Positions 4,383 to 7,903 of a stretch of 24,000 nucleotides of DNA are shown here, in pieces. Within the stretch, counting starts at the first letter, position 1. The number at the start of each line of letters is the position of its first letter. The DNA comes from Serpentinicella alkaliphila (GTDB taxonomy: Bacteria > Bacillota > Clostridia > Peptostreptococcales > Natronincolaceae): positions 2,482,502-2,506,501 of the forward strand of contig NZ_CP058648.1 of NCBI RefSeq assembly GCF_018141405.1. Reading direction: 5' to 3'. Position numbers and translations under genes: made by a program. Below the pieces are notes generated by a model. That model did not search any database, was not told the origin of the DNA, and was given only the letters and a program-made list of their open reading frames with translations.

Positions 4383-4501
4383 AAAAGAAGTCTACTATAA
4401 ACTACTTATGTTAACTTAGACTTGAGAGTTGTAAAGTACAGTAGTTTAAACTAATAATTATTTTTAGTTTTCTGAACTCAAAATAACTAACATAAGGATA
4501 A

Positions 4502-4550
4502 AAAAGGCTATATTGATAGTTATAACTACAAGTATAGCCTTTTGTATTTT
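4502..4550 (+). terminator. Rho-independent terminator of pfk
   Basis: Stem AAAAGGCTATA (4502-4512) / TATAGCCTTTT (4533-4543). An inner palindrome TAGTTATAACTA extends the stem, and GTATTTT follows. Confidence 0.7.
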
Positions 4551-4730
4551 AAGGCTTGCGTATTTATACAATGAAGTGTACAGTTTTCTGCTTTCAGAGC
4601 AAGTATAATCAATAATGTAAGTTATTTAGAAAATTTAAAAAATATAGTTAGTAATTATAAATATTGGGTATTCATATAATAATCATTTTTATCGTGAAGC
4701 TACATAGCATAATTATAGGAGGTCATAATA

Positions 4731-5408
4731 ATGCAAAAATTCAATTCATCTCAGACTATTGGAGAGATTGTAGCTATAATACCCGAGGCAGATAAATTAT
4801 TTATGGAGTACGAAATAGATTCTTATATATATGAGTATATTACTTTAGGAGATGTAATTGAGCAGAAAAAACTTGATAAATGTGAAGTACTAGAAAAACT
4901 AAATAATATATACAACAAAGATTCTAAAAAATGCGATGCATTTAAATTCATGGAAATGTCACCATGCCAGATTGCAGATAATATTATAAATAATCATAAT
5001 AATTCTATATGTTGTAAGCTCCATGAAGTTTGTAATTTGTTAAGTCATGCGTTGGAAACTAGTGGACCAGAACCAAATAATTTAATGAGTATTAATGATA
5101 AAATAATTAAATTACAAAATGCCCTGCAGCAGGCTATGGAGAAAGAACAAAAGCTGATAGGGACAAATATCAATAAATTCGATTGTATGCCCTGTTTTGA
5201 ACATAGTTGTATGAGTGAGTTACTGAATGAAATTGAAATTGAAAATAACGTGGTAGATTATACGCTAAAGGATATCAAAGAGATTTCTAGGAATTGTAGA
5301 ATACCTAAGAGTGAGTTCGCATCCTATTGGCAAATTGTTAAAATATTAGAGGAATTAAAAGATAGTATGGTCAAAAAAAGTAACAATATGAGTGATCTTT
5401 TTATTTAG
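4731..5408 (+). CDS. RIC/ScdA(YtfE)-like protein with degenerate di-iron site, Cys-rich
   Basis: 225-aa ORF with an AGGAGG RBS. The N-terminus QTIGEIVAIIPEADKLFMEYEID...LDKCEVLEKLN aligns by eye to the ScdA_N/DUF542 region of YtfE/ScdA ([27 protein letters not shown]...). The C-terminal part is colinear with the hemerythrin-like domain. Most His/Glu iron ligands and the CCGG motif are replaced. The comparison is from memory of YtfE/ScdA sequences. Confidence 0.5.
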   Translation: MQKFNSSQTIGEIVAIIPEADKLFMEYEIDSYIYEYITLGDVIEQKKLDKCEVLEKLNNIYNKDSKKCDAFKFMEMSPCQIADNIINNHNNSICCKLHEVCNLLSHALETSGPEPNNLMSINDKIIKLQNALQQAMEKEQKLIGTNINKFDCMPCFEHSCMSELLNEIEIENNVVDYTLKDIKEISRNCRIPKSEFASYWQIVKILEELKDSMVKKSNNMSDLFI

Positions 5409-5591
5409 AGTGTTTAATTTTGAAAACTGCAAGTAGCCTCCTTTATTGGAAAGGGCCTGGAGTAATGAAGTGAATTTCTCTTGGCTCTTTAATTCTTTAC
5501 TTGTAATGTATAATATAATTAATTTCAGTTTATTTGGATATATATTTGTTAAATATAATAACGTATATTAAATAGAACTGATTAGAAGATA

Positions 5592-5620
5592 TTGACTGGA
5601 ATAAAATAATAGTCTATGGT
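5592..5620 (+). promoter_or_regulatory. Sigma-A type promoter upstream of arsD
   Basis: TTGACT (5592-5597), 17-nt spacer, TATGGT (5615-5620), about 70 nt upstream of the arsD ATG. Confidence 0.55.
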
Positions 5621-5625
5621 TATAG

Positions 5626-5645
5626 ATATAGATAATCATCTATAT
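5626..5645. promoter_or_regulatory. Perfect 8-4-8 inverted repeat, candidate repressor operator
   Basis: ATATAGAT-AATC-ATCTATAT starts 6 nt after the putative -10, so it overlaps the expected transcription start of arsD. Confidence 0.5.
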
Positions 5646-5688
5646 AACATATAAAAAGTTTAATTAAGATTAAAAAGGAGAGGTTTAT

Positions 5689-6054
5689 ATGAAGAAAATG
5701 ATTATTTTTGAACCTGCAATGTGTTGTTCTACTGGGGTTTGTGGCCCATCTGTAGATGAAGAACTGTTAAGAGTTACGACAGTTATAAATAATTTAAAAA
5801 GTAATGGAATTATTGTTGAAAGATATAACTTAACTAGCAGCCCTCAAATGTTTATCGATAATAAATTAATTAATGAAATAATTAATAAAGAGGGTGTTGA
5901 TGCTCTCCCAGTGACTGTAGTAGATGGTGAGGTTGTTAAAACAAAAGAGTATCCAACTGATCTAGAGTTTTGTGATTTTCTACATGTGACTGAGCATAAT
6001 CTTATGCCAGCTAAAAAATCCTGTGAAGCATGCAGTTTAAAATGTGGGCATTAG
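5689..6054 (+). CDS. arsD: ArsD arsenical metallochaperone / trans-acting repressor family
   Basis: 121 aa. The N-terminus MIIFEPAMCCSTGVCGPSVDEEL...VERYNL...P..F..N...LPVTVVDGEVV is near-colinear with plasmid R773 ArsD (MVFDPAMCCSTGVCGTDVDQAL...IERFNL). Cys12, Cys13 and Cys18 are present. AAGGAGAGG RBS. Confidence 0.9.
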   Translation: MKKMIIFEPAMCCSTGVCGPSVDEELLRVTTVINNLKSNGIIVERYNLTSSPQMFIDNKLINEIINKEGVDALPVTVVDGEVVKTKEYPTDLEFCDFLHVTEHNLMPAKKSCEACSLKCGH

Positions 6055-6108
6055 GGTCTAGTAATAGATAAATGCCTTAAATTAATGAAGAATATTATTA
6101 GTTAAAAT

Positions 6109-6149
6109 GGTAGGGTTAGAATGGTACTAGCCCTACCTAATATTTTTTT
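6109..6149 (+). terminator. Rho-independent terminator of arsD
   Basis: 11-bp stem GGTAGGGTTAG / CTAGCCCTACC (one G-U pair), 7-nt loop, then TAATATTTTTTT. Confidence 0.8.
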
Positions 6150-6270
6150 GTATTTAGATAGGCATTAAAATGATTTAAATATAAGTATACTATGCCTAAG
6201 TAAGAATCAAAGCTAAGTTGAGATTCAAAAAATATTTTACTATTTTTTGGTTATATTTTTATAAATATAG

Positions 6271-6300
6271 TTGCAAAATACAATTATTGCATAATATAAT
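6271..6300 (+). promoter_or_regulatory. Promoter of marR-hgcAB
   Basis: TTGCAA (6271-6276), 18-nt spacer, TATAAT (6295-6300), directly upstream of the GGAGGTG RBS (6308-6314). Confidence 0.55.
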
Positions 6301-6307
6301 TATTGTA
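6279..6307. promoter_or_regulatory. 29-bp imperfect palindrome, candidate MarR autoregulatory operator
   Basis: TACAATTATTGCATAATATAATTATTGTA. 11 of 14 symmetric positions pair and the outer 6 bp are perfect (TACAAT/ATTGTA). It overlaps the -10 box. Confidence 0.45.
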
Positions 6308-6318
6308 GGAGGTGATTA

Positions 6319-6768
6319 ATGTTGAAAGATATAAAAGCTTATGAAAAACTTAGGGAAATAATAAGAATCTTTGAAAGAAATCTTGGAGCATTAAAGGCAA
6401 ATGAAATTACTTGCTGTGGAATTACGATGGCTCAGTGTCATGCGTTAGTAGAGATTGGTAGAGCAGAGAATATTTCATTAAATGAATTAGCCAATATATT
6501 AGATTTAGATAATAGTACTATGAGTAGAACAGTAAATGGCCTAGTAGATAATGGGTATGCTAAAAGAGATATAAACCCTAAGGATAGAAGGTATGTCACT
6601 ATTTCTTTAGAGGAAAAGGGCTATGGACTTTTTGAGGGGATTGAGAGTGAGATGAATGAATATTTTAAGAAGGTGTATGAAACTATACCAGAAAAGAAAA
6701 GGGATCAGGTCATTGAGAGTTTAGAAATTCTGTTGAAATCAATTAAAATAAATGATTGTTGTAAATAA
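6319..6768 (+). CDS. MarR family transcriptional regulator with extra cysteine clusters
   Basis: 149 aa. Winged-HTH layout: GITMAQCHALVEIGRAENISLNELANILDLDNSTMSRTVNGLVDNGYAKRDINPKDRRYVTISLEEKG. Cys32-Cys33 (6412-6417), Cys40 (6436-6438), and C-terminal Cys147-Cys148 (6757-6762). Confidence 0.85.
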   Translation: MLKDIKAYEKLREIIRIFERNLGALKANEITCCGITMAQCHALVEIGRAENISLNELANILDLDNSTMSRTVNGLVDNGYAKRDINPKDRRYVTISLEEKGYGLFEGIESEMNEYFKKVYETIPEKKRDQVIESLEILLKSIKINDCCK

Positions 6769-6795
6769 TAGGTTATTTTGAAAAGGGGGGTATAA

Positions 6796-7896
6796 ATGTG
6801 GGAATTAGAAAGAAATAAAGATAAGTGCTGTTCTAATGAAAAAGAAATAGACAGTAGTTTAAGTTTTCAAAATCCAAATAGACACTGGATTGTCGGCGAA
6901 ATTTATACACCAATTTGTAAAGTGTTGCAGGTTTCAACTAAGCTGACTATTTTTGACACAATTTACTCTTGGAAGGTTCGCTGGGGAATAAATAGGATGA
7001 ATTACAAAGTTGATCCAGGTATATATTGTATTGGAAATCCAGATGACAAATCCCCAGTACTCGTTACTGCAAACTATAAGATGAGTTTTGATATGTTGAG
7101 AAAAGAATTAAGTGATAAAGATGCTTGGATATTAGTTTTGGACACAAAAGGAGTTAATGTATGGTGTGCTGCTGGTAAAGGAACTTTCGGAACCGATGAG
7201 CTTGTAAGTAAGATCAAAAGTACTAGGTTGTTAGAACTTGTTTCTCACAGAACTATAATTTTACCTCAACTAGGTGCACCTGGTATCTCCGCCCATGAAG
7301 TGTACAAAAGGACTGGTTTTAAGGTAATATACGGACCTGTCAGGGCTTCAGATATAAAAGAATTTTTAAAGAATAATCTGGTTGCAACGCCACAAATGAG
7401 GAAGGTTAATTTTAATATTTTTGATAGATTAATTTTAACTCCAATTGAGATAGTAAATTTAATAAAACCATCTATCTATATAATAAGTACGGCATTTTCT
7501 TTGAATTTACTCACTAATACTTTTTTTAGCATTGAACTTTTTTCTGTAATTGATTTGTGTGGATATATTGGGGCATTAACAATAGGATGTATAATAGTGC
7601 CACTTCTTTTACCCTGGATACCAGGGAAATCCTTTGCCTTTAAGGGTTGGTTATTAGGACTATCATGGGTATTGCTTTTATTAGCTGTAAACAATTCAAT
7701 GATGGGTATACTAAGACAACTTAGCTATATGTTAATTTTCCCGTCCTTATCTGCATTTGTAGCCGTTAACTTTACAGGCTCATCAACCTACACATCCTTC
7801 TCTGGAGTAATGAAAGAAATGAAAATAGCTATACCATCAATTGCAATTAGTATGGTAGTAGGTATTTTCCTATTAATTTTAGGTAGTATAGTATAA
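6796..7896 (+). CDS. hgcA: HgcA, mercury methylation corrinoid protein
   Basis: 366 aa. The soluble N-terminal domain carries GVNVWCAAGKGTF (7150-7188; Cys124 at 7165-7167), matching the diagnostic N(V/I)WCA(A/G)GK cap-helix motif. The C-terminal part has about five hydrophobic TM helices. GGGGGG RBS. The start is 28 nt after marR and hgcB follows 7 nt downstream. Confidence 0.88.
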   Translation: MWELERNKDKCCSNEKEIDSSLSFQNPNRHWIVGEIYTPICKVLQVSTKLTIFDTIYSWKVRWGINRMNYKVDPGIYCIGNPDDKSPVLVTANYKMSFDMLRKELSDKDAWILVLDTKGVNVWCAAGKGTFGTDELVSKIKSTRLLELVSHRTIILPQLGAPGISAHEVYKRTGFKVIYGPVRASDIKEFLKNNLVATPQMRKVNFNIFDRLILTPIEIVNLIKPSIYIISTAFSLNLLTNTFFSIELFSVIDLCGYIGALTIGCIIVPLLLPWIPGKSFAFKGWLLGLSWVLLLLAVNNSMMGILRQLSYMLIFPSLSAFVAVNFTGSSTYTSFSGVMKEMKIAIPSIAISMVVGIFLLILGSIV

Positions 7897-7903
7897 AATA
7901 AGG

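Follow-up and report, generated by a model that had tools for sequence, protein, structure and literature searches.

Gene organization of the marR-hgcA-hgcB locus

We analyzed a 24,000-nucleotide stretch of the Serpentinicella alkaliphila genome (contig NZ_CP058648.1, positions 2,482,502 to 2,506,501 of the forward strand; hereafter referred to as the window), in which a gene for a MarR-type regulator lies directly upstream of the mercury methylation genes hgcA and hgcB. We describe here this regulator, its predicted operator, and the loci of its relatives in other bacteria. The features of the locus are listed in Table 1, and the encoded MarR shows 100% identity to the S. alkaliphila entry at NCBI.

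The marR stop codon TAA occupies positions 6766-6768, and the hgcA ATG starts at position 6796. An initial annotation made from the sequence alone had described a short gap free of hairpins between the two genes, which we also find, although the 28 nt given there is the distance between the final base of the stop codon and the first base of the hgcA ATG, and the intergenic stretch itself is 27 nt. A scan of positions 4400-10400 detected only two terminator-like sites, one after arsD (6109-6137) and one after htpG (10208-10249), and none between marR, hgcA, and hgcB. The marR-hgcA spacer is also not stably folded (-3.8 kcal/mol, z = -1.08). The hairpin after arsD is the upstream boundary of the marR-hgcAB unit, and arsD belongs to a separate transcription unit, while the layout of marR, hgcA, and hgcB is consistent with their co-transcription. 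An Rfam scan of the whole window found no riboswitch or other RNA as a candidate regulator of hgcAB.

Table 1. Features around marR and hgcAB in the window (position 1 is the first nucleotide of the window; RBS, ribosome binding site; ORF, open reading frame)
Feature	Position	Strand	Basis
RIC/ScdA-like gene	4731-5408	+	Sub-threshold family matches
arsD, arsenite metallochaperone gene, orphan	5689-6054	+	PF06953, 1.4e-44; NF033727, 135 bits (cutoff 90)
Intrinsic-terminator-like hairpin and T-run after arsD	6109-6137	+	11-pair stem with 6 GC pairs, then TAATATTTTT
Predicted primary operator, 21-bp palindrome ATAGTTGCA-AAA-TACAATTAT, overlapping the -35 hexamer	6267-6287	no strand	Match to family consensus
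Sigma-70-type promoter, TTGCAA (6271-6276), 18-nt spacer, TATAAT (6295-6300)	6271-6300	+	10/12 match
Predicted third operator half-site ATTATTGTA (consensus ATAATTGCA), between -10 and RBS	6299-6307	no strand	Inverted-repeat search and position matrix
RBS AGGAGG, 6 nt before the marR ATG	6307-6312	+	Read directly
marR_ars-type repressor gene, 149 aa, with C32, C33, Q39, C40, H41, C147, C148	6319-6768	+	ORF and Pfam
marR-hgcA spacer, 27 nt, G-rich RBS at about 6783-6790, no terminator	6769-6795	+	
hgcA, corrinoid protein of mercury methylation, NVWCAAGK cap-helix motif	6796-7896	+	NF040863, 464 bits (cutoff 275)
hgcB, ferredoxin with two [4Fe-4S] clusters, C-terminal Cys-Cys	7904-8209	+	NF040864, 126.8 bits (cutoff 99)
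htpG	8283-10199	+	HSP90 Pfam matches on the syntenic gene of relatives

Fold and conserved cysteines of the regulator

The regulator matched the MarR families PF01047 (48.4 bits, 8.5e-13, cutoff 24.6) and PF12802 (MarR_2, 44.6 bits). Membership in the ArsR/SmtB family was rejected, as there was no match to HTH_5 (PF01022) and only a sub-threshold score for HTH_20 (17.9 bits, cutoff 27). The slot before hgcAB is thus occupied by a MarR rather than an ArsR/SmtB protein, as first annotated. An AlphaFold2 (AF2) model (pLDDT 85.9) has the standard MarR fold, with helices at residues 2-21, 37-49, 54-61, 65-77, 99-121, and 125-147 and a wing at residues 81-97, and the top Foldseek matches were all MarR structures. 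Sequence and fold searches of the Protein Data Bank returned only generic MarR structures, with no structure of the MarR_ars subfamily discussed below among them. The five cysteines pointed out in the initial annotation are all present in the ORF. In the AF2 model, C32 and C33 are located in a low-confidence loop before helix 37-49, C40 in the first turn of this helix, which precedes the helix-turn-helix elements (54-61 and 65-77), and C147 and C148 at the end of the last helix.

To describe the conservation of these residues, we used the 120 best database matches (57-98% identity), which came from Clostridium, Desulfosporosinus, Syntrophomonadaceae, and many metagenome-assembled genomes (MAGs). 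C32 and C40 were retained in all 120 homologs, C33 in 118, C147 in 92, and C148 in 88, and the adjacent Q39 and H41 in 120 and 118, respectively. Such a near-invariant cysteine pattern is far beyond what would be expected by chance. When 1.84 billion cluster representatives were searched with a profile, 127 had E < 1e-30 and 1509 had E < 1e-10; among the top 150 of these 50%-identity representatives, most kept the CC...QCH motif together with a C-terminal Cys or Cys-Cys. Relatives from Bacillales instead read CC...QSH...CC, indicating that C40 is an addition of the Clostridia-type clade.

The C-terminal cysteines varied with the neighboring gene. All 23 members linked to hgcAB carried at least one of them, whereas they were missing in most members linked to genes for GNAT acetyltransferases. 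The members that lack the C-terminal Cys-Cys, mostly GNAT-linked, keep CC-x6-C, and the Bacillales relatives keep the C-terminal Cys-Cys, which suggests that the third thiolate of a metalloid site may be supplied by either C40 or a C-terminal cysteine. Two natural fusions of a MarR of this subfamily to a C-terminal GNAT acetyltransferase-like domain (P0143, 288 aa; P0178, 301 aa) were also present, representing a Rosetta-stone-type link to ArsN-like enzymes.

Assignment to the MarR_ars subfamily

The initial annotation suggested that this protein may be a convergent metal(loid)-sensing MarR. However, this kind of regulator is already known as MarR_ars, defined by Yu et al. (2021; bioRxiv 10.1101/2021.08.12.456183) as the MarR proteins of arsenic gene islands, located upstream of arsV, arsN, or arsP. 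In that work, the founding member, AdMarR_ars of Achromobacter deleyi As-55, was found to repress arsV, to bind the promoters of arsV and of its own gene, and to be released by As(III) and Sb(III). Its conserved cysteines are C36, C37, and C157, and the C36S, C37S, and C157S variants responded far more weakly to As(III). The members shown by Yu et al. include Clostridium, Paenibacillus, and Brevibacillus, and the authors presented MarR_ars as a set of regulators of resistance to antibiotics that contain arsenic (bioRxiv 10.1101/2021.08.12.456183).

Sequence features place the window regulator in MarR_ars with good plausibility, the founder being compared through its published description. Both share the MarR fold, an N-terminal vicinal cysteine pair (here C32/C33), and a C-terminal cysteine (here C147/C148), and the vicinal pair is also present in the Bacillales MarRs encoded next to ArsN1 and ArsV-like genes. 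Like the published members, proteins of the present group are encoded first in, or beside, sets of arsenic-island genes (arsN, arsV, or a permease gene); in the window itself, orphan arsD alone is adjacent. Autoregulation is likewise predicted in silico from a conserved palindrome over the -35 element of marR's own promoter. Full-length alignments were obtained with a MarR from a Paenibacillus lautus plasmid whose gene immediately precedes an annotated ArsN1 gene, with a Bacillales MarR encoded between an ArsV-like oxidoreductase gene and arsR-arsB-arsC-arsD-arsA (29% identity, E = 2e-19), and with MarRs encoded beside a permease gene on Bacillus cereus and Priestia plasmids. The group differs from MarR_ars as published in that the Clostridia-type clade adds the invariant C40-H41 and usually a C-terminal Cys-Cys pair, and in that its cargo here is hgcAB, which Yu et al. 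do not mention (bioRxiv 10.1101/2021.08.12.456183). The published triad consists of a Cys-Cys pair plus a C-terminal cysteine, and not of the C32-C33-x6-C40 cluster stressed in the initial annotation, in which C40 is a clade-specific extra.

A tblastn search of plasmids for AdMarR_ars-like proteins returned only Bacillales relatives, apart from one nominally proteobacterial match on a Stenotrophomonas rhizophila plasmid (CP031730.1). This MarR, which lies in an ars island, was rejected as a bridge to Achromobacter, since it shares 95% identity with a protein from Lysinibacillus fusiformis and all of its closest relatives belong to Bacillales. Its presence on this plasmid points either to a recent acquisition from Firmicutes or to a record that is contaminated or assigned to the wrong organism. 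A Sulfitobacter plasmid MarR (E = 1e-8) was set aside as a generic MarR adjoining indolepyruvate oxidoreductase genes. In B. cereus pBc10987 and a Priestia megaterium plasmid, the MarR gene and its adjacent permease gene are accompanied by divergent genes for AhpD-like, ATP-grasp, and ArsR proteins, and the Priestia plasmid also encodes a radical SAM protein with an RCCLKC tail about 4 kb away. These two loci may correspond to an organoarsenical biosynthesis or resistance cluster.

Related regulators head arsenic-gene and hgcAB units

The initial annotation had called for a survey of MarR homologs with the CCG...QCH motif, and such a survey revealed strong linkage to both ars genes and hgcAB. 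With one genome taken per species, 176 relatives were returned, and 80 loci with flanking sequence were kept. Counts of hgcA and arsD were made by tblastn with the window proteins over the fetched loci, with flanks of up to 10 kb, and other neighbors were taken from clusters of the called ORFs lying no more than 6 kb from the regulator. Of the 80 loci, 23 contained hgcA and 21 contained arsD. As a rough estimate from the general rarity of hgcA, its occurrence at up to 10 kb from a random regulator would be expected in far less than one locus of the 80. Arsenic genes were frequent neighbors, with ArsR encoded in 27 loci, Acr3 in 25, ArsA in 19, ArsD in 17, and ArsC in 13; these ArsR genes, with the ELCVCD motif, are true arsR genes separate from the MarR gene. 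An ArsN1-like GNAT gene was found in 23 of the 80 loci (NF040503, 128 bits, under the cutoff of 170).

In nearly all loci, the regulator gene opens a unit of genes on the same strand. The gene immediately downstream most often encoded an S-adenosylmethionine (SAM) methyltransferase (34 loci) of approximately 190-310 aa, with size classes near 210 and 270 aa and a C-terminal DCxGGNCC...CGC cluster that is conserved in the shorter members. Elsewhere the next gene was hgcA (15 loci, with 4 further loci in the order hgcA-hgcB-marR), an ArsN1-like GNAT acetyltransferase gene (10 loci), or a gene for a C_GCAxxG_C_C protein (8 loci). The methyltransferase (Methyltransf_11) occurred in 44 of the 80 loci overall (e.g., L014:10416-11063) and falls short of the NCBIfam cutoffs for ArsM (PRK11873, 61.6 bits, cutoff 263) and for its best match, the DVU_1556 family (74.8 bits, cutoff 155). 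It could be an uncharacterized metalloid methyltransferase.

Linkage to hgcAB took several forms. The three closest metagenomic homologs (68-76% identity) were all arranged as marR-hgcA-hgcB within differing flanks, with the operator described below at -53 or -54. In Anaerocolumna xylanovorans DSM 12503 (L076, 6081-11397), hgcAB is embedded in an arsR-hgcA-hgcB-arsD-acr3-arsC operon, and in a MAG (L048, 135-6750) in an hgcA-hgcB-arsD-arsA-acr3-arsC operon; in both, the ars-hgcAB operon runs straight into a marR-GNAT-C_GCAxxG_C_C unit with its own operator. In a neighbor-joining tree computed without support values, the hgcAB-linked regulators fell into at least four groups interleaved with ars-linked ones, which is no more than suggestive of several recruitments of hgcAB. 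The hgcAB-linked regulators showed no distinguishing cysteine change.

These neighborhoods bear on two alternative signals. Three-thiolate sites, such as that of MerR, bind Hg(II) avidly, and the cysteine cluster might therefore bind Hg(II), so that the methylation substrate itself would induce hgcAB. The presence of hgcAB as cargo here and in 23 of the 80 relatives fits this possibility, which was also raised in the initial annotation. However, the same regulator and operator head arsenic-island units in most loci, and no mer genes were identified when the 80 neighborhoods were clustered. The interleaving of hgcAB-linked and ars-linked regulators with the same cysteines points in the same direction, and hgcAB of Pseudodesulfovibrio mercurii ND132 was reported to respond to arsenic and not to Hg (bioRxiv 10.1101/2022.10.17.512643). 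Our analysis gave no specific support for Hg(II) sensing, which we consider highly improbable.

A second alternative is that the regulator senses thiol redox state or electrophiles, as do proteins of the OhrR, QsrR, or Cu-oxidized MarR type, so that thiol stress would induce hgcAB. Sensing by cysteine oxidation is common among MarR proteins, the cargo often includes the C_GCAxxG_C_C "putative redox-active protein", and the window holds the RIC/ScdA-like gene upstream as well as a DJ-1/PfpI gene. In contrast, the OhrR model NF052638 scores only 17.8 bits against a cutoff of 200, by which OhrR-type membership was rejected, and no ohr genes were identified when the neighborhoods of the 80 loci were clustered. 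The neighborhoods are dominated by ars genes and not by peroxidase or quinone-reductase genes, and the published MarR_ars members answer As(III) and Sb(III) through equivalent cysteines. Taken with these points, redox sensing appears improbable.

A conserved palindrome overlaps the marR promoter

We aligned the 100 nt upstream of each homolog and obtained the consensus AAaAATAGTTGCATatTaCAACTATTttATgtTACAATaaTTgcAgGAGG. Within it, the predicted operator reads ATAGTTGCA-N3-TGCAACTAT and lies over the -35 element. The family layout consists of TTGCA at -35, an 18-nt spacing, TACAAT at -10, the third half-site, and then the Shine-Dalgarno sequence. The TTGCA after the -10 element was kept in most of the 59 aligned sites of the position matrix, and GGAGG at the RBS position of marR was conserved across the family. 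The window operator has two mismatches to the consensus and is the single match at three or fewer mismatches in the 24 kb, where 0.03 would be expected. This operator palindrome is defined here and was not described by Yu et al. (bioRxiv 10.1101/2021.08.12.456183).

The initial annotation had singled out a 29-bp imperfect palindrome at 6279-6307, overlapping this promoter. That palindrome is real, with 10-nt arms (6279-6288 and 6298-6307) that are 90% complementary, and the comparative alignment identifies it as the second and third of three half-sites (6279-6287 with 6299-6307). We set it aside as the operator because the 21-bp palindrome one half-site upstream is better conserved. An alternative half-site register is offered by positions 6271-6302, where two tandem 16-nt copies, TTGCAAAATACAATTA and TTGCATAATATAATTA, form a direct repeat with 88% identity. 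The promoter, earlier described as the only good one, is in fact joint best in positions 4400-10400, the other 10/12 sites being located before or inside htpG; the scan found 39 promoter-like sites against 35 expected from shuffles, i.e., no excess.

The palindrome was present in 64 of 79 upstream regions (at most 5 mismatches of 18), with positions of -51 to -59 relative to the start codon. With the limit set to three mismatches, 52 sites were found in 1.30 Mb of loci, compared with 0-2 in shuffles, and 51 of the 52 lay at the head of a marR-containing unit, including marR-hgcAB units. A GTTGCA-N3-TGCAA core also occurred in the Bacillales outgroups at -49 to -54. In the four loci ordered hgcA-hgcB-marR (L027, L032, L035, and L042), the palindrome is located in front of hgcA. 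In L061 and L067, it is located upstream of a short-chain dehydrogenase gene preceding marR, and this dehydrogenase gene therefore appears to be part of the same regulated unit. The dehydrogenase gene (cluster c18) adjoins the marR unit in L040, L061, L067, and L075, with hgcAB as the cargo in L040, L061, and L075 and GNAT in L067.

Expression of hgcAB has often been reported as low and constitutive, and marR might control only itself or an unlinked target, with hgcAB expressed constitutively by read-through or from a weak internal promoter. A weak promoter-like site matching at 9 of 12 positions does lie in the 3' end of marR (6720-6749), so that some independent transcription of hgcA is possible. 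This explanation fits poorly, however, with the shift of the operator to the front of hgcA in the hgcA-hgcB-marR order, with the retention of the marR-hgcAB module across differing flanking contexts, and with the terminator-free spacer of 27 nt. We regard it as quite improbable.

A predicted metalloid-responsive operon

Based on these features, we consider it probable, though by no means certain, that marR, hgcA, and hgcB form an autoregulated operon in which a MarR_ars repressor on the operator is released by a trivalent metalloid. The effector-free protein, a dimeric winged-helix repressor, would bind the 21-bp palindrome over the -35 hexamer, probably with a second contact at the half-site pair flanking the -10 element. 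The bound repressor would block RNA polymerase at the single promoter of the marR-hgcA-hgcB transcript, and because it would act at the promoter driving its own transcript, the unit would be autoregulated. By analogy with AdMarR_ars, a trivalent metalloid may be held by the C32-C33 thiolates plus C40 and/or C147/C148; As(III) and Sb(III) are the candidate effectors, possibly along with a trivalent organoarsenical. Binding would then shift the DNA-reading heads, free the operator, and induce hgcAB.

The nearest parallel is ArsR2 (DND132_1054), described by Gionfriddo et al. upstream of hgcAB in P. mercurii ND132 (bioRxiv 10.1101/2022.10.17.512643). In both cases a small, cysteine-rich, metalloid-type repressor gene immediately precedes hgcAB in the same orientation, linking arsenic to hgcAB. 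ArsR2 is co-transcribed with hgcAB, as is predicted here from the gene layout. The two differ in family and host, as ArsR2 is an ArsR/SmtB protein (PF01022) of Desulfovibrionaceae with a four-cysteine site at other positions, whereas the present regulator is a MarR (PF01047) of Bacillota. The As(III) site of R773/E. coli ArsR (Cys32-Cys34-Cys37) similarly places three close thiolates by the DNA-binding helices and follows the derepression logic proposed here; it belongs to another fold family and occupies another position, and the resemblance is functional and convergent, not homologous. OhrR, the Cu-responsive E. coli MarR, and ZitR/AdcR show that the MarR scaffold can be switched by chemistry at cysteines or metal-ligand residues. 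The models of the OhrR/MarR type score far under their cutoffs here and the context is arsenic and hgcAB, while ZitR/AdcR are co-repressed regulators with His/Glu zinc sites.

Several points weigh against the metalloid-released operon. The operator overlaps the -35 and -10 elements, and promoter conservation could explain part of its conservation. The identity of the effector is argued by analogy from one characterized betaproteobacterial member, and the invariant C40-H41 is absent from the Bacillales relatives, so that the ligand chemistry of this clade could differ. Cysteine-rich MarRs can also be redox or electrophile sensors. In the window, orphan arsD is the sole canonical ars gene (arsA, acr3, and arsC were not found there), and there is no full ars operon; in approximately half of the loci linked to hgcAB, ars genes are absent from the surrounding 6 kb. 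To these the promoter-like site inside marR may be added.

The cargo of the related loci also raises the possibility of a different effector, with the same repressor and operator answering a trivalent organoarsenical (methylarsenite or a compound of the arsinothricin type, for instance), and hgcAB induced as part of an organoarsenical response. The usual cargo is of an organoarsenical type, namely the ArsN1-like acetyltransferase and the Cys-tailed SAM methyltransferase, and the outgroup MarRs adjoin an annotated ArsN1, an ArsV-like oxidoreductase, and a permease near the RCCLKC-tail radical SAM protein. A vicinal cysteine pair forms the methylarsenite (MAs(III)) site of the MAs(III)-selective ArsR of Shewanella. 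The framing of Yu et al. around arsenic-containing antibiotics is in line with such an effector, but it was to inorganic As(III) and Sb(III) that a response was seen in the sole published assays (bioRxiv 10.1101/2021.08.12.456183). In addition, the five conserved cysteines permit three-coordinate binding, which suits inorganic As(III). An organoarsenical effector is therefore possible in our view but rather unlikely.

Implications for hgcAB

The control of hgcAB expression and the real purpose of HgcAB are long-standing questions of mercury biogeochemistry, and the sole hgcAB regulator tested so far is an ArsR-family protein from one Desulfovibrionaceae strain. An unrelated arsenic-type repressor family that heads hgcAB in a wide range of Firmicutes provides independent comparative support for the regulatory link between arsenic and mercury. 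This strengthens an existing hypothesis and makes it testable, and overturns nothing. The 21-bp operator and the five cysteines are concrete targets, and S. alkaliphila and A. xylanovorans DSM 12503 are cultured hosts. If the proposed regulation is correct, As or Sb exposure could predict methylmercury production by Firmicutes.

The occurrence of ars genes near hgcAB was noted earlier (PMC7438021), and MarR genes upstream of hgcA were noted in one sentence for Dethiobacter alkaliphilus and Geobacter daltonii (PMC10349881). Apart from this mention, no paper in the literature we searched connected hgcAB with MarR_ars regulators or their operator. The recurrence of a MarR_ars-hgcAB module within Bacillota, its defined operator, and the sharing of one regulatory slot by hgcAB and the Cys-tailed methyltransferase thus appear to be new.

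A more speculative reading is that in many Bacillota hgcAB is arsenic-island cargo, and that HgcAB was selected, as its native role, to metabolize or detoxify trivalent metalloids or organoarsenicals, with Hg methylation as a side reaction. It is suggested by the position of hgcAB behind the same MarR_ars and operator as the methyltransferase and ArsN1 genes, and by its embedding in the ars operons of L076 and L048. If true, the native activity could be, for example, corrinoid-dependent methylation of As or Sb. We advance this role only tentatively and consider it rather unlikely.

Other genes in the window

The ScdA-like gene before arsD is of the di-iron type and scores under the family cutoffs. 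The arsD and ScdA-like pair is also found upstream of marR-hgcAB in two relatives (L081 and L082), where three additional genes lie in between. Downstream, htpG starts 73 nt after hgcB (8210-8282) with no terminator in the gap, and it has a strong promoter-like site of its own (TTGACA-16-TAAATT with an upstream TG, 8231-8258); the adjacency of hgcAB and htpG is kept in relatives L081-L084. Farther along, a catalase gene of the large-subunit type, apparently a decayed pseudogene in this anaerobic host, occupies the minus strand at approximately 13600-15300, in fragments of at most 84 aa with matches to Catalase (1.3e-26), Catalase-rel (4.7e-13), and Catalase_C (7.7e-07).

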